Shown: positions 8,986 to 23,321 of the stretch, in pieces
Layout of the letters: the number at the start of each line of letters is the position of its first letter
How positions within the stretch are numbered: position 1 is the first letter of the stretch
Source of the DNA: a virus
Lineage: Duplodnaviria; Heunggongvirae; Uroviricota; Caudoviricetes
Strand: one strand, 5' to 3'
DNA: 38,533 nt
Virus record (IMG/VR): IMGVR_UViG_2531839666_000019
The notes under the pieces: generated by a model
Seen by the model: only the letters and a program-made list of their open reading frames with translations
What the model was told of the DNA's origin: nothing
Database searches by the model: none
Program-made: the position numbers and the translations under genes

Positions 8986-9866
8986 ACACTCCTCGTCAGT
9001 ATTCTGGCGGCCATTGCACTTAATCCCGGAGACATGCGGTTGAATGCTGTGCCGGCGGCGTTAAGCTGCCCGGAAACGGTATCCAGAGCACCTGCAATAT
9101 TTCTTTTGTCCACACCACTCAGCGCCGACTGCGCCTGCTGTACATACGTGGCTGCCTCACTGGCTGTTCTGGCCAGACTGATGGCATCGGGCATGGATTC
9201 AGAGAGTACATTAAACGCCGGAATACTTTTCCCCAGAGCGCCGGATATATTACCCAGTCCGCTCATCAGTCCCGGCACACGGGTCAGCGCGACAACGGGG
9301 TTACCCTTCATTTTCTGCGCCACCCGAACGGCACTGATGGTGGTCTGGAGTACAGACTGCGCCTGTTTCGCATAGTTGACGCCGTTACGGACGAACTGCG
9401 CCACCCCGGAAGGCGATGGAACAGCACCAGATATGGCCCCGGCACCGGGAACCTGCCTGCGTATTGCCGGCGGTTGCAGAGGATTTTTCGGGTCACCGGT
9501 GTATTCCCGGAGAGACACGGTGGCACTGACAGCCAGCACGTTACCGGTGCTGTCTGTCTGCTCGCTGGTTGCGGTCACATCGGTAATCACGAACCAGCCG
9601 CGATAGTCACCGTTGCCGAAGACCAGCGCCAGTGCCTGATGGGCCTTCATGGCAGTTCGCACTCTCGCCAGCTCCACGTCGGGCACACAATAATGCTGAT
9701 GGAAGACCAGGCTTATCTGGATTTCGTCCAGCCTGTCGCCGACGAACTGCAGGCCGGGTTTACCCTCGATGCGGGCATGCTCCGCATAATCGACGCCAAA
9801 CGTGGCCTCGAAGCCGTCCCAGTAGGTAATCAGTTCAAACTCAATATCACCCAGTACGGCAAACAT
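8982..9866 (-). CDS. tail protein, Mu gp43-like (DNA circularisation protein N-terminal family)
   Basis: 294-aa ORF directly downstream of the tape measure gene. Confidence 0.6.
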   Translation of the reverse strand: MFAVLGDIEFELITYWDGFEATFGVDYAEHARIEGKPGLQFVGDRLDEIQISLVFHQHYCVPDVELARVRTAMKAHQALALVFGNGDYRGWFVITDVTATSEQTDSTGNVLAVSATVSLREYTGDPKNPLQPPAIRRQVPGAGAISGAVPSPSGVAQFVRNGVNYAKQAQSVLQTTISAVRVAQKMKGNPVVALTRVPGLMSGLGNISGALGKSIPAFNVLSESMPDAISLARTASEAATYVQQAQSALSGVDKRNIAGALDTVSGQLNAAGTAFNRMSPGLSAMAARILTRSV

Positions 9867-12332
9867 CAGCTGTACTCCTTACGTTGTTTCTGAGCCAGCA
9901 GACGCTCCAGCATTTTTTCCAGCTCATGCAGGCTCATATTCAGGGCACCAGCCAGCCCGGCAGGCGCTGCGGTTTCCTTACCATTGAGGAAAAACTGAGG
10001 ATTAAAGCTGACCTGGATACCGCCAGACGCTCCACCGCCGGTTGCAGTTGCGCCACGGCCTGAATATCCGGCAGCCATGATTTCCGGCGACGGGATACGG
10101 GGAACATCCGGTGTCATTTCAGCGGCCAGGCGCTGCCCGGCCAGTGCAGCAAGCGGAGTGGTCCGTTGCAGGCCAATGGCGGCACCCTGCGCGATATTGT
10201 CACCAAAGCCTATAAACACGCGACTCGGTGAATGGATGCCCAGCTTTTCGCTGAACCAGTCACTGATGCTGTCACCCATTCCGGTTATGCTGGTTTTCAG
10301 TGACGCCCATTTGTTTCTGATGCCATTTATCAGCCCGTCAATAAGATGACCACCGAAGTCGGTGAATTTCGCCGGCAAATCAACGCCGAGATATTTCAGC
10401 GCAGCCGCAAAGGCTTTATAAAGCAGACCTGCCGGAGACCAGTTAACCAGCAGTTTACCAATTCCCGCGATGCCGCCGTTAAAGGCTTCCTGAATGTCAG
10501 CCCAGCGCTGTTTAAACCAGCTACTGACAGCGCCCCAGTTGCGGTAGATAAGGTAAGCTGCTGCCGCGACGGCGGTGATAACGAGACCGATGGGATTCAT
10601 CAGCAGCGCCCGGCCAATCCAGAGAACGGCACGCCCGGCGCTCATAATTCCGCGAACCAGCCCCCCTGAGAGCACCCCCCCACGTCGTTCTGGTTCCTCT
10701 GGCGACGGCACCAAAGCCTGTCACCAGCCAGCGGAGTTTACCGCCTTCCCCCAGTGCGAGCATCAGACGAAGCCAGTTGGCCCGAAGTAAAACAGCATTT
10801 TTCCAGACGCTTACAAAGGGGGAAATAAGGAGATTCAGCCCAAACTTGAGACCGATAGTGGCCATCCTGAAAGCGAGTAATGCGCCCACAACCTTTATGG
10901 TGCTGCTGACGAGCTGCGGATTTGCCGCTATCCATTTGCCGACGCTGTCCATTAAAGGAATAAATGTTTCACCCAACTGGAGCAAAGCCGGACGCAAGGA
11001 TTGCCCGATGCTGATAGCAGAATCATTAAAGCCGATCTGCATTCTGCGCCAGCGACCTTCAAGCGTATCATTCTGCTTTGCAGCATCCTTATCCAGGGTA
11101 GACATTGCAGCCGGAGCATTCATTTCCTGCTTACTGGAAAGGTATTTATCCCAGCCCTGTCGCATTGACAGTAAATGGTTGACAGTCTGAATATCGGTAA
11201 AGACCTCAGCCAGACCAAATGACTCCATGAGTTTCTGCTGACCTTCCTGATCGCCTCTTGCTCCTGCAGCTTTCCATTGCTGCAAAAACGCTTTGCCTTT
11301 ACTGTCGATAAAACGGTTGGCAATCATCAGTGAAGCTTCGTACTGCGAAAAACCCTGAGCGACGTAATTCTGCATTGACCCCTGGTAATCCACCCCGGCT
11401 TTAGCATATTTCTGGATGGTATCTCCGCGGCCCATTGCTGCCAGCCAGTTGGACATATTGGTGACCGCTTCCTCTGCAGAGCCACTACCTTTACCGACCT
11501 CCAGACTGGCAACAATCTGGGTAATCGCATCTTTTCCATAAATACCACGAGCAGCGAAGGCTTTCGCCATACCGGGTAATGCTTTTGCCATATCCTTCAG
11601 CTCAAATGACCCAAGTTTGGCTCCTGTTGCCGCAATGCCAAACGCCTGTTCAAGTTCTTTCGCATCAGTGATTCTGAGTGCATCGCTGAAGGCATAAGTC
11701 ATTTTGGCAAGGTCGGTCATATCGGCTTTGGTTGCTGTAGCGGTCTTTCCAAGCATCTCTGCAAACGTTGCTGCCCGTTCGGGGGCCATACCATCAGCAA
11801 CTAATTGTCCGACTCCCCCTAACAGAGACTCCTGCAGTTGGTTAACCTTCAGCGAGGCCTGTCTGATAGCCAGGCCAATTGCACGTTCCTGTTTTGCATC
11901 CAGGTCTCCTGTGACACTGATATCCCGCAACTGTGATTCAAACGAGGCATATTGTTTAACCGAGGCCATGACCGGTGCGCCCAGCGTTCTGCCAATAGCA
12001 TAGGTTTCTGCACCCTGACCATAGAGCGCCAGGCGGTTAGCCTTCAACGCATCACCGGTGGCTGATACTGCTGACAGACGGCGCTGCTGACGTTCAATTT
12101 GCTCCATGGTGCGGCTTACCCGCAGCAACTCGCTGTTGAGATGCTGCATCCGGGAAGAACCCAGTTGACCATAACGTTCTGTTGCCCGGGTTAAGGCATT
12201 CTGGCGTTCCTGCAGACGGCGGGAGGTATCACCAAGGGAATCAAGGGCGCGTCGGGTGCCACTGACGGCTGAGCGGAAGCTGCTCCCGACAATGCCGCCA
12301 ATAATGACGCCGACTGAAAATTCACTGGCCAC
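9866..12332 (-). CDS. tail tape measure protein, reading frame broken within 10661-10681 (two ORFs 10521-12332 and 9866-10714)
   Basis: 603-aa plus 282-aa overlapping ORFs; coiled-coil-rich N part and hydrophobic segment LVRGIMSAGRAVLWIGRALLMNPIGLVITAVAAAAYLIY; removing one G from the G7 run (or the adjacent G6 run) joins the frames. Confidence 0.8.
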
Positions 12333-12424
12333 GGTGGCTATCCTCTGAAAGCAAAAAAACGGAAGGGAAGTGTCTGAACCCCATGCAGAACAGCCGCGAC
12401 TGGCGGCTGTTAAGTGATACGTTG

Positions 12425-12848
12425 TTACTGATTGTCGCCGAACTCGCTTTTGATTTGCTCTTCAGCCTGCTCCAGCCACATCTCCAGATCGTCAGTATCG
12501 AGGGCATCAATCTCCCCCGGCTGAAACCTGAACCATCTCGCCAGCAGGCCCTGCGCCTGCATCAGTGTTTTTGTCGCTCTTGCCCAGCCCAGTGATTTTC
12601 TGAAATCGTTTCTGCAGCTCCATATAGTCGGCAAGATCCATGTTATCGAGGTCTTCCGGGAGGATACCGGTGCTACGGGCAATCAGTGGTTCGTCCCAGT
12701 CTGCCGGGTCTTTGTTGATTTTGCGCACCTGCTTCAGGTCTTTTACTGTCAGGCGTTTCAGTTCAATCTGTTCAATTCTGGTACCTGCAGCAGTGGTGAA
12801 AGGATAAGACAGCGTAAAAGTATCGGACTGGGTCTGTGACATGATCAT
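12425..12848 (-). CDS. tail assembly chaperone (113-aa product 12507-12848) with a +1-frame 27-codon extension to 12425
   Basis: Position between tube and tape measure genes; second frame has an acidic C-terminus EIDALDTDDLEMWLEQAEEQIKSEFGDNQ; frames meet at a G5 run (plus-strand C5 at 12514-12518). Confidence 0.6.
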
Positions 12849-12910
12849 ACTCCTTTGTAAATTCAGAGCAGTATGTCTGGCGGTGGACGTGACGGATATT
12901 AAAGGAGATT

Positions 12911-12932
12911 AAGAAGAAGGGGCCGGAGCCCC
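12911..12932 (-). terminator. putative intrinsic terminator inside the late operon
   Basis: On the minus strand, hairpin GGGGC-UCCG-GCCCC followed by UUCUUCUU, starting 8 nt after the stop of the 93-aa gene. Confidence 0.4.
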
Positions 12933-12939
12933 TGTGATG

Positions 12940-13221
12940 TCAGCAAGTGCGAAAACCCTTGCAGTTACGCAGGAAAGCGATGAGAAGCGCCTTTCCCTCA
13001 GATTTGCCGATGCCGGAGAACCAGTGGTCGGGCGGCTCCCATGCTTCAATCAAATCGGCCAGTTTGCGGGCCTTTGAACGTGTGCAGTCAATCGGGTCAT
13101 TGGTTTTACGGGTATTAAAAAGGGTTTCCACCCCCGGAATATCAAGGAGGGTAAACCACGTACCATTTGACATGCCCAGTGACGCACATCGCCCTCCTTT
13201 GTCAGTCAGTTCAACACTCAC
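12940..13221 (-). CDS. hypothetical small Cys-containing protein between tail tube and chaperone genes
   Basis: 93-aa ORF tightly packed after the tube gene; no recognisable motif. Confidence 0.45.
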   Translation of the reverse strand: MSVELTDKGGRCASLGMSNGTWFTLLDIPGVETLFNTRKTNDPIDCTRSKARKLADLIEAWEPPDHWFSGIGKSEGKALLIAFLRNCKGFRTC

Positions 13222-13223
13222 CG

Positions 13224-13745
13224 TCAGCCCCCGATATTGATCCGATAGTCAGTCAGTTGATCAACGCCACCGACGCGGAAGATGTTGGCCAGATAGTCCA
13301 GTTGCAGCAACTCTTCACCATCCAGTACCTGTCTGATATACGTGCAGGTGAAGCTACTGGAGAACTCGGCGTTCTCGTGCTGTTTAAACGTCCCCAGCGG
13401 GTTCTTCTTGAACATAATTGTCAGGAAGGTGACCAGCGGGATTTCGTCGATCAGCCCCTGCGAGCTGTAGCGCTGGACGCTGGAGCGACACTGCAGCGCC
13501 AGCGACTTGTACGGGTTCGCGGCAGACAGCATCGCATCGCGGTAAAAGCTGTTCCATTTGATTTCGCCTTCCAGTTTGTCAAAACCAGCCGGGAGTTCCA
13601 CCTTACCCACCATCCCCAGTGCCTTGTGTTCCTGCATAATCATGGAGACATCGGGGAGTTTAACCTCCTCAGCCCGTCCCAGCAGGTTAGTACCATCCAG
13701 ATAGATGTTGGCATTCGTGATTCGGTTTATCTCAATCTTTGACAT
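13224..13745 (-). CDS. tail tube protein (Mu gp40-like)
   Basis: 173-aa ORF immediately downstream of the sheath gene, typical size. Confidence 0.75.
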   Translation of the reverse strand: MSKIEINRITNANIYLDGTNLLGRAEEVKLPDVSMIMQEHKALGMVGKVELPAGFDKLEGEIKWNSFYRDAMLSAANPYKSLALQCRSSVQRYSSQGLIDEIPLVTFLTIMFKKNPLGTFKQHENAEFSSSFTCTYIRQVLDGEELLQLDYLANIFRVGGVDQLTDYRINIGG

Positions 13746-15172
13746 CAGTTGCCCCCTTTCAGGGTTAACAGGTATTCCGAGGTGATCTCAGTCTCAAACG
13801 TCAGTCGCTCCAGCGGCGGTGGTGGCGTATATTTGTAGCTCAGCAACAGGTGCCCGGCGGCCAGCTCCGTTTCCGGATTGCGGGCCGGATCAAACCAGCA
13901 ACGGAAGCCCAGTACCGCGCCATCACCAGTCATTTTGCGACCGTAGGCGTTGACCGACTCCGTCAGTGCATCAATCAGCGCCTGAGTAATCGGCATGTCG
14001 ATGTACTGCTGGCTGAAGTAACGAATGGACTCATTGATCACATCACCGGTGCGGCGAACGTTCTCAAAGTTACGCATATGGGTGACCGTTGGCCATGCTG
14101 CCGTCCGGTTACCCCACAGACGAAGGCCGCTGCCGTAACTGCTGAATACCGTGGTGATCCCCTGTTCGTTAAGCAGGTTCACCTCGCTCTGCGGATCGTC
14201 AATCATTGCCGACAGCTGGCGCTCCACGCCGGTGATCCCCAGAATTTCCTGATTTGAGGATGACCACCAGTACCCTTTGTCCAGGTCGACTTTGGCACGC
14301 AGGCCCGCCGCACGCTGGCTCAGTGGCTCCAGACGTTCCGTGTTCGTCACCGGGTCATATACCTTCACATGCGGGTAGCACAGGCGGACACGGTCAGAGC
14401 TGGTATTAAAGTTAATGGTGCCTTCCGGGCCTCGTCCCGCCAGAGCCTGCGCAAAAGTGGTACCAACCGGCGCATCAATATAGGTTACTGCTCCCAGTTT
14501 CTCAGCCATGGCGATAAGCTCAACCGAGACGCTGTTCTGGGTGCAGAATACCGGAGCAATCAGGATTTTGGCGAAGTAGCCAAACAGGTTAAAACTGTCG
14601 TTAAGCAGCTTCATGCCGGTACGGTTGCCTGCAGCGTTAACGGTACCGATGATATCAGCCGGGGTGACTTTGGTCGGATCAGCATAGTTATAGCTGGCCT
14701 TCACCGTTGCATCTGCAGCAATGCTTTTACCCAGGTTAGTAATCACCCCGGTCTGTGCATCAAGCGAGTAGTCCTGACCTTCAACATAAGGCTGACCGTC
14801 GCTGTCCGGTTTCAGTACCAGCTGCGCGACCACCGGATTAGCCAGCCGGGCTCTGCCTGTCGCCTTGTCGAACGACACATTCTCACTGACCACAGCGGTT
14901 TTATGCACAGACGGATCGAGTACGTTAATGACCAGAACGGTGCCTGCACCATGGTCATAAATCGCATCCAGCGCCTGTGGAATGGTAAAGCCGGTGAACT
15001 GGCTGCCAAATGCCGCAGCGTCTTTCTCAGACAGGCACTGTACCAGCGTATTGACATCCCCCATTGGTGCGGTACCAATCAGGCCAATAACGGCAGATTT
15101 CACCGTTTTAACCGGGCGGGCACCGTTTTCCACTTCAATGGTTTCCGGACCATGCAGATAGTTAGCTGACAT
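13745..15172 (-). CDS. contractile tail sheath protein (Mu gp39-like)
   Basis: 475-aa ORF, N-terminus MSANYLHGPETIEVENGARPVKTVKSAVIGLIGTAP typical of sheath proteins. Confidence 0.85.
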   Translation of the reverse strand: MSANYLHGPETIEVENGARPVKTVKSAVIGLIGTAPMGDVNTLVQCLSEKDAAAFGSQFTGFTIPQALDAIYDHGAGTVLVINVLDPSVHKTAVVSENVSFDKATGRARLANPVVAQLVLKPDSDGQPYVEGQDYSLDAQTGVITNLGKSIAADATVKASYNYADPTKVTPADIIGTVNAAGNRTGMKLLNDSFNLFGYFAKILIAPVFCTQNSVSVELIAMAEKLGAVTYIDAPVGTTFAQALAGRGPEGTINFNTSSDRVRLCYPHVKVYDPVTNTERLEPLSQRAAGLRAKVDLDKGYWWSSSNQEILGITGVERQLSAMIDDPQSEVNLLNEQGITTVFSSYGSGLRLWGNRTAAWPTVTHMRNFENVRRTGDVINESIRYFSQQYIDMPITQALIDALTESVNAYGRKMTGDGAVLGFRCWFDPARNPETELAAGHLLLSYKYTPPPPLERLTFETEITSEYLLTLKGGN

Positions 15173-20233: not shown

Positions 20234-21727
20234 TCAGCCGTTGTCACGCTCATGCAGACGCCCCCAGATATTTGCCACAAAGAGAATGCGGGCCAGCCGC
20301 TCCTGCAGATCGTCCGTGTTCATCTGAGGGTAGAGCTCCGCCAGTTCGCCCAGCAGCTCAGACGGGTTAACCCCGTTTTCGACCCGCCTGAACAGAGGTG
20401 CCAGGACGGGTTCCAGCGTGCCATTTAACACACCTCCGTTCATCAGAATGTCCAGCGCGTCGTCAAGCTGCTGTTGTGCATCATGATCGGCGCTTATCGC
20501 CTCGGCAAACTCCGCAGGCACTGCCCCGTCCGCAACCGGTGCATCAGAGAGGTCAATATCCCCCTCCTGCAGCTGGTACTCCCGCATGAAGTACTGCGGG
20601 GTCAGGCGTAGTCCCGCGCGGGTGAGTTTTTCGTCGCGGGTGGCACGGGTGTCATCAATGGCCTCCTGTTCCCACATGGCCCAGACCGGACACGGCACAT
20701 CGCCGAAGTTCAGGGTGACCACCGTTCTGATGACCTGATTCACTGCCGCCTGAATGATGTCCGCATCCGCATCGCGGATATCAGCCGTCACCTCCAGCCC
20801 GGCCTGTGCAGAGGCCTTGTTACTGTTCGCTTCCGTGGTCTGATTCTGACCGAGTAATGCAATGGAGATCTCACTGCGTGACAGCGTGATCAGCTCGCGG
20901 AATACCTCGCTGCTGTCCGCCTTGCCATCCGCGGCTTTGAGTTCAATGCTGCTGTCATCGGGGATGGCGGCCACAGCGTCCTCCACCATCTGCTCCATGG
21001 AGTCCAGCAGTTTTTCAATCTCTGCATCATTTGCACCCCTCGGGTGCTTACCGATCACCCACGGGGAGCCAAACTTTTCGGCAAAGCGGAGCCAGAATTT
21101 CATCCCGCCTTTCTTGAAGGCGACCGGCCAGAAGCACATGGACAGGTCCGGGAAACCGTAAGGATTGTCATACGAGGCATCCTGTGCCGGCACCACGAAT
21201 TTTGACGGTGACAGCAGCTCACCCTCCACACCCGCATCACGCGCCCGGAAGCGCAGGCAGTTGTCCGTATCAAACTGAAACCACTCAGGCGGTTTGCCGA
21301 CAATATCCGTCACCGCCCACGCCCTGACCGAACGGCCCCACATGATTTCACAGGGCTGATACCCGTAGAGCACGGCATCGCTCATCTCACCGATGATGCG
21401 GGACAGATCCAGATCGTCGAGCATGTCGCGGATGAAACGGAAGACCCGGGCAGAAGCGTGACCGCGCTCCAGTCCACGCTCCAGCGATTTGAGCGCTGCT
21501 TTACGTCTGCGGATACAGCCTCCGACCAGCGGGTCGGTGCGCAGTTCGCGGTAGATACGGATATCCCGTCCCTGAGCCTTGAGAATGGGATCAGGATTGG
21601 GCAGATACATGCCCAGTCCGTAAAAGTCGATCGCGCGGCTGCGGGAGGCAATCTGCGCGGTCAGTGATTTCTGAGGCTCAGAAAAAGCAACAAATTCATC
21701 GGGTGAAACCCAGATACCCCTCGCCAT
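20234..21727 (-). CDS. portal protein (Mu gp29-like, DUF935-like)
   Basis: 497-aa ORF directly after the terminase large subunit, typical size. Confidence 0.8.
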   Translation of the reverse strand: MARGIWVSPDEFVAFSEPQKSLTAQIASRSRAIDFYGLGMYLPNPDPILKAQGRDIRIYRELRTDPLVGGCIRRRKAALKSLERGLERGHASARVFRFIRDMLDDLDLSRIIGEMSDAVLYGYQPCEIMWGRSVRAWAVTDIVGKPPEWFQFDTDNCLRFRARDAGVEGELLSPSKFVVPAQDASYDNPYGFPDLSMCFWPVAFKKGGMKFWLRFAEKFGSPWVIGKHPRGANDAEIEKLLDSMEQMVEDAVAAIPDDSSIELKAADGKADSSEVFRELITLSRSEISIALLGQNQTTEANSNKASAQAGLEVTADIRDADADIIQAAVNQVIRTVVTLNFGDVPCPVWAMWEQEAIDDTRATRDEKLTRAGLRLTPQYFMREYQLQEGDIDLSDAPVADGAVPAEFAEAISADHDAQQQLDDALDILMNGGVLNGTLEPVLAPLFRRVENGVNPSELLGELAELYPQMNTDDLQERLARILFVANIWGRLHERDNG

Positions 21728-23321
21728 CAGAATCCCTCCAGCATACGGGCCGCCTGACGACGACGGCGTGAGCTTGCCTTCACCGGCCCTTTGTTAATTT
21801 CACGGCTGGCGAAATACGCCAGCGCCAGTGCGATGGCTGAATCCCCGTGGCGTTTACCACCGTCAGCCTTTGCTTTTGAGCGTTGCTCCGGTACGCGGGG
21901 GACACCGTTCACCACCTGAACGGCCCGCAGGTCATCCAGTGTGTCTTCATCCTTTGGTAAGTCCACCAGGTTACCGTCTTCCAGTGCAGCTTTGACCGGA
22001 GGCATATGCTCCCTGTACCAGCCTTCGGTTGGCATCACCTGCTGAATCCGGCTGGAGCCGTAGCGCTGCATGGCGTATTCAGCCAGATAGGCACCATTAC
22101 CACGGGCATCAAACGCTGCACCCAGCAGACCGGGCAGGCCATCCATCAGATACCAGGTGATTTGCTCCTGCTGTCTGAACGGCACGTTACGCAGCTCCAG
22201 TACGAATGGCACGCGTCGTACCAGGTTCTTCTCCTGCAGCAGGGGATAGTCCACCGACAAATCACCGCTACGGCCAAAGTCGCGCCCCAGGAAAGAGCGG
22301 GCATCAGTGGGGAGTGCCTCCAGCAATGGTTTCAGATACTCATCAAGCCAGTCCTGCGTCTCGCGGAAGCGAACCTCATCAGACAGCAGTTCATAACCTT
22401 CCTTGCAGGTCAGACGCAATACCGGCGTATCAGCGGACATGCGGGACTCTATCAGGGCACGGGACAGCCAGGCACCGCCACCGTTGGCCGGAATACAGTC
22501 AAGCTCTTCGGATGCGCCGGCACCGTAGAATTTGTACACCGATGCCATCCAGGCCTGCTCGGAGGCCTCCGACCATTCCTTCCCGGTGCGCAGACAGACG
22601 CGCCGGAACAGCCCCTCAGATACGGCTTCCCGGAAAGTGATGCGATGTATGCTGCCTCCCTGACGTCCGGCACGGATATCCCCGATAAGCGTATTGAACG
22701 GATTGTCGTCACCGTTATGGGTGGAGATAACGTGTACCTTCCCCCCCAGATAAGCATCGCCAGCGCCGCTTTCAGCAGTTCGTCCAGTTGCTCATGGAAC
22801 GCCGCTTCGTCGATAACAATAATACCCTGACGGCCACGCAGGTTAGACGGGCGGCTGGAGAGCGCAACAATACGAAAGCCGGAGTCAGGAAATTTGATGG
22901 TGTAAGTCCTGATGTGTTTGTCGTCGTCGTCCTCTTCCCAGAATCCTTCTTCAATTTCACTGGCCGCATAGTTGAATGCCCGTGCCCACATCGCACACGC
23001 CTGAATGTATTCGACGGTCATGTCTTGGTTATAAGCGATGTAATACACATTCATCCCGCCTGCTGGCGCAGAAGAGGCGGCGGTCAGTACGTTATCGGAT
23101 GCCTCAGCCCATGTAATACCGGTACGACGGCTCTTTTCTATCACCTTAAGCGGAGAGGTGTCTGCCACCCAGCGCTGCTGGTAAGGCAACAGAACGGGAG
23201 GGGCATCCAGCGCCGAGGTATCAGGCAAAACGGGAGCAAGGTTATTCCTCCCGTCCATGGGACTCATCCCTTCGGGGCCGCCGCCAGCGGCGTTTAAAAT
23301 CACTCCGGATGATTTTGTCAT
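21727..23321 (-). CDS. terminase large subunit (Mu gp28-like), frame broken at a G7 run (plus-strand C7 at 22741-22747)
   Basis: Two overlapping ORFs (22452-23321 and 21727-22548); adding one G to the run gives a continuous protein of about 531 aa through WGGKVHVISTHNGDDNPFNTLIGDIRAGRQGGSIHRITF. Confidence 0.8.

Follow-up and report, generated by a model that had tools for sequence, protein, structure and literature searches.

A probable programmed +1 frameshift at a conserved CGA_UUU_C in the tail assembly chaperone gene of BcepMu-like prophages

We analysed a 38,533-nucleotide (nt) stretch of viral DNA (IMG/VR record IMGVR_UViG_2531839666_000019, Caudoviricetes; hereafter the window, meaning the whole stretch), which derives from a Mu-like E. 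coli prophage whose tail genes here all lie on the minus strand. Our subject is its tail assembly chaperone gene, together with a second open reading frame (ORF) that overlaps the chaperone ORF in the +1 frame. The chaperone ORF matches the Pfam family PF10109 (Phage_TAC_7, titled in Pfam “Phage tail assembly chaperone proteins, E, or 41 or 14”) with 80.3 bits (25-bit cut-off, E=1.1e-22), and it sits between the tail tube gene and the tape measure gene, the position that characterizes tail chaperone pairs. The tail-assembly chaperone pair in the window belongs to an E. coli prophage of BcepMu-like type, with a Mu-like head and a P2-like tail. We propose, with a probability of about 0.7, that a conserved programmed +1 frameshift at CGA_UUU_C (12608-12602) yields a long form of the chaperone; that the +1 frame is entered through recoding, by whatever route, we hold to be very likely. 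The features on which the argument turns are as follows.

12507..12842, minus strand: frame-0 gpE-like tail assembly chaperone, 111 amino acids (aa) plus TGA; PF10109; the same coding sequence is called by PGAP in the 100%-identical E. coli 503025
12848, minus strand: alternative ATG of the chaperone
12850..12855, minus strand: Shine-Dalgarno (SD) sequence AAGGAG, 7 nt upstream of the ATG at 12842, read from the sequence
12602..12608, minus strand: proposed +1 cassette CGA_UUU_C, with R79 CGA at 12608-12606, F80 UUU at 12605-12603 and C at 12602; placed by invariance, stop bounds and the wobble switch
12425..12601, minus strand: +1-frame segment that would be read only after the shift, 58 codons RKSLGWARATKTLMQAQGLLARWFRFQPGEIDALDTDDLEMWLEQAEEQIKSEFGDNQ plus TAA 12427-12425; from translation, with variation concentrated at the +1 wobble position
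12507..12601, minus strand: frame-0 C-terminal tail of the presumed short product, QKITGLGKSDKNTDAGAGPAGEMVQVSAGGD; poorly conserved, of varying length among orthologues
12446..12544, minus strand: P2 E′-like domain LARWFRFQPGEIDALDTDDLEMWLEQAEEQIKS in the +1 frame; weak PF06528 match, BLASTP to P2, PGAP naming
12514..12518, minus strand: G5 run, forming codons CCG GGG (Pro-Gly) and the first base of GAG (Glu) in the +1-frame E′-like domain

An earlier, sequence-only reading of this DNA had described a 113-aa chaperone. Its identification of the gene stands and its size is revised, the likely start being the second ATG at 12842 (111 aa), since AAGGAG lies 7 nt before it and PGAP makes the identical call in an identical genome. 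Frame 0 ends with ...GTT TCA GCC GGG GGA GAT TGA (stop 12509-12507), just after the GGGGG at 12514-12518, and the +1 frame runs on as ...TTT CAG CCG GGG GAG ATT GAT GCC... to the TAA at 12427-12425, encoding EIDALDTDDLEMWLEQAEEQIKSEFGDNQ; both details were correctly given by that reading, which had placed the join of the two frames at the G run. From 12682 onward the +1 frame stays open over 85 codons, beginning 55 codons upstream of the first codon encoded by the G5 run; its overlap with the frame-0 ORF amounts to 58 codons. Because both frames overlap over such a length, the join need not fall at the G run. A G5 run as such is not unusual in the window, where GGGGG occurs 54 times on both strands, compared to 94 expected from shuffles.

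The two-frame arrangement is conserved. Among 184 related loci, taken from annotated phage and E. coli records, species-representative genomes, IMG/VR viral contigs and metagenome contigs, 181 encode the E′-like peptide in the +1 frame, and relatives in Burkholderia and Pseudomonas, BcepMu included, share this arrangement. The comparison with orthologues had been suggested as a check, and its outcome supports the view that the second frame is true coding sequence, entered by recoding into +1. The exceptions comprise one P2-like Pasteurella phage, which carries the peptide in the -1 frame together with an A_AAG_GGA heptamer, and two loci (L020 and L097) in which it is in frame through a private 1-nt deletion in each. 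In L020 (Apirhabdus apintestini CP138906) the deletion lies five codons upstream of TTT_C and creates a constitutive E+E′-like ORF; in L097 (IMG/VR UViG 2734481909_000003) it adjoins the G5 run, and the WFRFQP motif is destroyed. Both deletions may be either errors or marks of prophages in decay. As in other chaperone pairs, the second ORF overlaps the first without a conserved start. Its product resembles E′ of phage P2: BLASTP of the domain to residues 107-133 of P2 E+E′ gives E=0.022, and PGAP names the equivalent 45-aa ORF of E. coli 571 “GpE family phage tail protein”. NCBIfam yielded no hit to an E or E′ model. Phage records annotate the first ORF only, and PGAP annotates two separate ORFs.

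Two independent lines of evidence, stop-codon bounds and per-position variation, converge on CGA_UUU_C. Counting codons after a conserved ED motif, stops in the +1 frame occur as late as index 13 (L182 and the Pseudomonas group), and the earliest stops in frame 0 occur at index 26 (L181) and then at 28 and 34 (L182). From these latest +1 stops and earliest frame-0 stops, the shift would be confined to codons 14-26, QKRFQKITGLGKS (13 codons), if the family shares one site. Within this interval, per-position entropy in 110 unique, indel-free sequences is zero at every position of CGA TTT (codons 16-17) and at the CA of codon 18, ~90 bases upstream of the G5 run. The Arg codon is CGA in 110/110 and the Phe codon TTT in 110/110, while at another conserved Phe, used as a control, 81 sequences have TTC and 27 have TTT, and at another conserved Arg four codons occur. 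Only 9 of 146 Arg codons in the structural genes of the prophage itself are CGA. When we counted unique orthologous sequences with the +1 arrangement, which are the denominator of all counts out of 109 given here, TTT_C was present in all 109 and CGA_TTT_C in 106. The UUU is in frame and followed by a pyrimidine, with re-pairing on UUC possible, as in UUU_Ynn sites; the conserved TTT_C lies inside the overlap and is a shift-prone sequence, not a classical X_XXY_YYZ heptamer.

Moreover, the selected frame changes at the cassette. Upstream of the interval, 57-63% of the variation falls at frame-0 codon position 3, a share that drops to 0.23 and then to 0.11 downstream; position 1, the wobble position of the +1 frame, takes 48% of the variation in codons 26-41 and 67% in codons 42-49, the switch setting in from about codon 20-26. 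The distinct synonymous/non-synonymous variants follow the same course, with 121/169 in frame 0 and 58/230 in frame +1 upstream, and 9/53 in frame 0 and 28/34 in frame +1 across codons 26-41. In the GC-rich relatives (Burkholderia and Pseudomonas, 57-67% GC, including BcepMu and phiE255), all ~20 unique sequences carry TTT_CG[CGT], and TTT accounts for only 12% of the Phe codons in the long ORFs of these relatives. The codon 5′ of it varies there (TCC, GCC, TCT, GTG, CGC), and the candidate site of BcepMu reads TCC TTT CGC.

Other explanations of the two frames have to be weighed against a shift at this site. That the chaperone is truly one ORF, split in the window by a sequencing or assembly indel or as a pseudogene, is scarcely credible. 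The sequence-only reading had entertained it as a third homopolymer indel, and ORF-splitting homopolymer differences from E. coli 503025 do occur elsewhere in the window (10675-10681 and 22741-22747), just as a few continuous proteins do exist in databases. However, 601 nt around the chaperone gene are 100% identical to complete E. coli chromosomes, for example that of strain 503025, from whose near-identical prophage the chaperone region shows zero differences; the region is found in 637 of 5426 complete E. coli genomes, with a match of at least 99% in 28. The two frames recur across Enterobacterales, Burkholderia and Pseudomonas in the 181 loci, and the two in-frame loci owe their frame to deletions of their own. 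Continuous orthologous ORFs had been named as a sign of error in the window, and we considered the continuous 138-aa database proteins as a possible in-frame gene; they proved to be artefacts themselves, with short contigs and junctions scattered at homopolymers. Those that run across the G5 run are G5-to-G4 variants in 15 of the 15 contigs examined, which are short Logan assemblies, many of them with further homopolymer deletions within 1.6 kb; other database “fusions” join at an A5 run or a G3 run. A shift at the G5 run itself (12514-12518), either +1 on GGG_G or Mu-like -2 on G_GGG_GA, two codons before the stop and adding an acidic tail of 27-29 residues, is highly improbable. The run exists, both re-pairings are formally possible, and the run and the next ~100 nt are identical in four phage relatives; furthermore, in Mu, which belongs to the same Pfam family and whose shift is reported as -2 (PMC5009743), the +1-frame ORF opens at CGG GGG CGA, also a G5 run. 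Yet the run is present in 70/109 orthologues and lacking in 39/109 that keep the +1 arrangement, its variants (CCT GGG, CCA GGG, CCG GGT, CCG AGT, CCC AGT) encoding Pro-Gly or Pro-Ser in +1, a synonymous or conservative outcome. Frame 0 reaches the position of the run in 28/109 and ends before it in 81/109, with stops at codon indices 26, 28, 34, 42, 44, 47, 49 and 53 and, most commonly, at GTT TAG five codons upstream of it; the nearness of the run to a stop, which had made it look like a signal, is a lineage-specific accident. Substitutions near the run are silent in +1, and in frame 0 they change the amino acid or create a stop (TGG TTT AGA, TGG TTC AGG and TGG TTC CGG all read WFR in +1), joining at the run would remove the conserved LLARWFRFQP half of the E′-like domain, and the database ORFs joined there are the G5-to-G4 contigs described above. 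A Mu-type -2 shift, which calls for a conserved G5 junction of the form G_GGG_GCG_A that frame 0 reaches, fails on the same three counts (70/109, 28/109 and +1 selection that starts upstream). Since +1 is the selected frame already at least 20 codons upstream of the run, the extension would measure ~58 residues rather than the 27 codons first given (as listed then, the acidic tail itself has 29 residues). The run encodes Pro-Gly within the E′-like domain, and we do not take it for a recoding site.

Translation of the +1 ORF (E′) alone from an internal start, with no recoding, as PGAP annotates it, is distinctly improbable. An in-frame ATG (MQAQGLL...) is present in the window, PGAP annotates such an ORF in E. 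coli 571, and BcepMu gp42 is annotated as a free-standing ORF. However, this ATG is ACG or ATT in relatives and no SD motif was read before it; the +1 ORF of the Pseudomonas group was read as having no ATG, GTG or TTG before the conserved domain; and selection in the +1 frame reaches about 10-15 codons upstream of that ATG. In P2, E′ lacks a ribosome-binding site (PMC3931495), and its frame is annotated in GenBank as a -1 frameshift extension of gpE. Rather unlikely, too, is a +1 shift elsewhere in the 13-codon interval, or at a site that varies between lineages, such as GGG_G in GCA GGG GCT, or else transcriptional slippage. From selection, the switch can be placed no more closely than about codons 16-25, and in many orthologues GGG GCT lies further downstream. 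We nevertheless rejected GGG_G as the site, which is not conserved in the window's lineage (GGG_C in the window, GGG_A in L016) and lies downstream of codons already under +1 constraint, and reading of the aligned sequences turned up no further motif in the interval that the enteric and GC-rich groups both keep. As for slippage, the interval holds no homopolymer of sufficient length for the polymerase to slip; the longest one there in the window's sequence is AAAA (CAG AAA ATC, 12600-12597), which is not conserved. A slip on AAA_C with CGA as a “hungry” A-site codon was also considered and dropped, codon 15 being variable (AAA, CGT, GAC, AAC, ACC, ACA, CAG).

Several points weigh against a programmed shift at CGA_UUU_C. 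With mixed periodicity in codons 19-25, the selection analysis locates the switch point no more closely than about ±5 codons. Since the 110 sequences are related by phylogeny, the invariance counts are not independent events; part of the invariance could reflect a constraint on the amino acids R-F together with chance fixation of codons. Ordinary genes contain many UUU_C tetranucleotides, and the motif by itself is therefore no signal, and the frame-0 codon that follows UUU in the enteric group is CAG, which is common and not “hungry”. The two earliest frame-0 stops used for the bounds (L181 and L182) each come from one metagenome contig, which may not be viable. The E′ domain matches PF06528 (Phage_P2_GpE, profile positions 4-36 of 37) with 16.5 bits (E=0.006), below the 23-bit cut-off. 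RNAalifold applied downstream of the site to 19 diverse sequences returned -4.3 kcal/mol and no covarying pair, by which we ruled out a downstream RNA structure as stimulator, and no Rfam families were found in 12250-12950. No conserved SD-like motif was seen upstream of the site when the aligned sequences were read; the candidate stimulator of this kind, GGAG of ATG GAG (codons 11-12), is not conserved. Finally, we found no report in the literature of a shifted protein in this phage group.

In the mechanism that we propose, most ribosomes would stay in frame 0 from 12842 to 12507 and produce the 111-aa gpE-like chaperone, and a minority would shift by +1 at CGA_UUU_C (12608-12602). We infer a ribosomal event at one exact codon: peptidyl-tRNA-Phe (anticodon GAA) on UUU (F80) would re-pair with the overlapping UUC, and translation would resume in +1 with AGA AAA TCA.... 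The long product would be a 138-aa E+E′ protein that consists of residues 1-80 of the chaperone followed by RKSLGW...GDNQ, up to the TAA at 12427-12425, and its last 58 residues would contain the P2 E′-like domain. The invariant, rare CGA (I:A wobble) 5′ of UUU may help as a weakly paired E-site codon. Alternatively, it may act as in Ty3, with CGA in the P site and an out-of-frame Phe-tRNA binding to UUC; the E-site and Ty3-like routes would give the identical protein. CGA is plausibly part of the signal, given that +1 shifting is favoured by a weakly paired E site and that CGA works in the Ty3 site (PMC5009743). Because there is no downstream structure, Rfam element or conserved SD-like motif, the level of shifting would be low. 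For the P2 frameshift, Christie and colleagues reportedly arrived at ~10% in 2002. With the lambda G:GT ratio of ~30:1 as a yardstick (PMC5009743), a low level may well suit the needs of the system. If lambda G/GT and P2 E/E+E′ are a guide, the tape measure protein would be coated by the short and the long product alike, and the role of the extension would be to recruit the tail tube protein.

The wider proposal, to which we give somewhat better than even odds, is that BcepMu-like phages (~12% of complete E. coli genomes) make E+E′ by means of a minimal, structure-free +1 cassette, CGA_UUU_C in the enteric group and NCC/GUG_UUU_CGN in Burkholderia and Pseudomonas, with CGA as a stimulator. It further holds that all three shift types occur within PF10109 and that BcepMu is to be re-annotated.

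The neighbouring tail genes are these.

13745-15172, minus strand: tail sheath
13224-13745, minus strand: tail tube
12940-13221, minus strand: 93-aa ORF, between the tube and chaperone genes
9866-12332, minus strand: tape measure gene, GTG start at 12332

The 93-aa ORF is present in all close relatives and has a sub-threshold match to DUF7739 (25.7 bits, 27-bit cut-off); P2 has no counterpart of it at that position. A terminator-like hairpin, AGGGGC-tccg-GCCCCT followed by TCTTCTT (12918-12933, minus strand), occupies the gap between the 93-aa ORF and the chaperone gene and thus falls within what is expected to be a single late tail operon. The 92 nt that separate the E′ stop (12425) from the tape measure start (12332) contain a further stem-loop, CAGCCGC-cagtc-GCGGCTG (12391-12409, minus strand); its stem is kept in KP12, PhiKM and Phi06_2974B with an altered loop, and it has no good U tract. 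The E′ stretch (window ~12435-12530) is ~100% identical among four phages that differ by 8-14% upstream in the same gene, which could reflect strong constraint or a recent exchange by recombination.

The window also departs from the 503025 prophage outside the chaperone region. At 10675-10686 (minus strand; G run 10675-10681) it reads GACGT followed by G7 where 503025 reads ACACT followed by G8, the window being 1 nt longer. The tape measure gene is split in the window into ORFs of 603 and 282 aa and forms a single 2466-nt ORF in 503025; the window's variant occurs in 0 complete E. coli genomes, the best match being 98.5%, and the split stems either from an error in sequencing or assembly or from a mutation that inactivates the gene. 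At 22741-22747 the window has C7 (plus strand) where 503025 has C8, and a 513-aa gene is broken up into two ORFs that overlap, 21727-22548 and 22452-23321 (minus strand), that have no Pfam hits. The intact counterpart in 503025 is the 513-aa “hypothetical protein” CXX03_RS01495, upstream of a DUF935 portal-like gene. At ~27373 the window has T5 and the 503025 prophage T6, and from ~28233 the window contains an extra segment of ~800 nt relative to that prophage.

Tail chaperone frameshifting is among the most conserved phage recoding events, and cases that use no heptamer are still missed by annotation pipelines: in PGAP, in GenBank phage records and in the BcepMu reference, the pair is entered as separate or wrongly paired ORFs. 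If the proposed shift is real, hundreds of prophage genes of E. coli, Salmonella, Burkholderia and Pseudomonas could be annotated correctly, and the GenBank annotation of BcepMu gp41-43 would need revision. It would also provide functional UUU_Y +1 shifting with a natural example from bacteria and offer a simple system in which to study how the 5′ codon tunes +1 frameshifting, where CGA could stimulate in a Ty3-like manner, which is not documented for bacteria. A more general lesson is that a homopolymer beside a stop codon resembled a signal and proved incidental. We regard the finding as a modestly novel variation on a well-known theme of phage recoding, mainly of interest to specialists in recoding and phage annotation.

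Tail chaperone frameshifts are as a rule of the -1 type; Mu shifts by -2, and for a haloarchaeal virus a +1 shift has been put forward (PMC5009743). On frameshifting of the chaperone in BcepMu-like phages, we found only the general framework of Xu et al. and a paper on KS10, which sought a frameshift site in a related phage and reported none; the supplement of Xu et al. 2004 may mention the group. UUU_Ynn has a particular tendency towards +1 shifting in bacteria, even without a neighbouring stop codon, and is apparently the sequence used in Yersinia YopN-TyeA, and the influenza PA-X shift takes place at UCC_UUU_CGU; +1 shifting rises when E-site pairing is weak, and CGA is one of a small number of codons able to stand in for GCG in the yeast Ty3 site (PMC5009743). 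The present site shares with the UUU_Ynn sites of E. coli argI, YopN-TyeA and PA-X the same tetranucleotide, on which tRNA-Phe re-pairs perfectly with UUC, and RNA structure is not required at such sites although the 5′ codon matters (PMC5009743). The TCC TTT CGC of BcepMu matches the influenza PA-X cassette UCC_UUU_CGN. In contrast, the genes are unrelated, and the enteric phages studied here use a 5′ CGA and a 3′ CAG or CAA; we found no description in the literature of the combination of CGA, UUU and CAG/CAA. The E. coli prfB (RF2) site CUU_UGA likewise involves P-site re-pairing in the +1 direction, with a stop directly after the shift codon and an SD-like stimulator about 3 nt upstream. 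Neither feature is seen here: the next frame-0 codon is a sense codon, CAG or GAT, at either candidate site, no conserved SD-like motif was read, and the stop near the G5 run adjoins no slip codon and is not conserved.

The gp41 of Mu is listed in the description of PF10109, its genome type is that of the Mu-like prophage described here, its second ORF is likewise in the +1/-2 frame, and CGA stands at the opening of that ORF (CGG GGG CGA). The -2 frameshift of Mu gp41 is attributed to Xu, Hendrix & Duda 2004, as cited in PMC5009743. Unlike the present group, Mu needs its G5 run for -2 re-pairing, whereas the G5 run here is not conserved and lies inside the E′-like domain, and by reading, the Mu extension has no obvious similarity to the present one. 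BcepMu (NC_005882) has orthologous genes, its gp42 being the same +1-frame E′ ORF. However, its GenBank record (L185, 603-1364) makes gp42 the lambda-G analogue and gp43 its slippage product, and does not join gp41 to gp42; our comparison suggests that the recoded pair is gp41 to gp42.

There is also a likeness to gpE and gpE+E′ of P2, with which the pair shares PF10109, the position between tube and tape measure genes and a recognisably similar short E′ domain; the sizes are 91 and 142 aa in P2 and would be 111 and 138 aa here. In both, the shift (proposed here) takes place on a Phe codon with which the E domain closes at its C terminus, so that, if our proposal is right, the two would shift at essentially the same protein position. 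They differ in that P2 shifts by -1 at T6G (GGT TTT TTG) with E′ in the -1 frame, whereas here the direction is +1 at CGA_UUU_C, with no heptamer, and in that the P2 shift is recorded in its GenBank annotation and the present one is proposed from sequence. PF10109 would then employ all three types of shift, -1 in P2, -2 in Mu and +1 in the BcepMu-like phages, and the arrangement of the present group reads as P2's device re-engineered for another frame.

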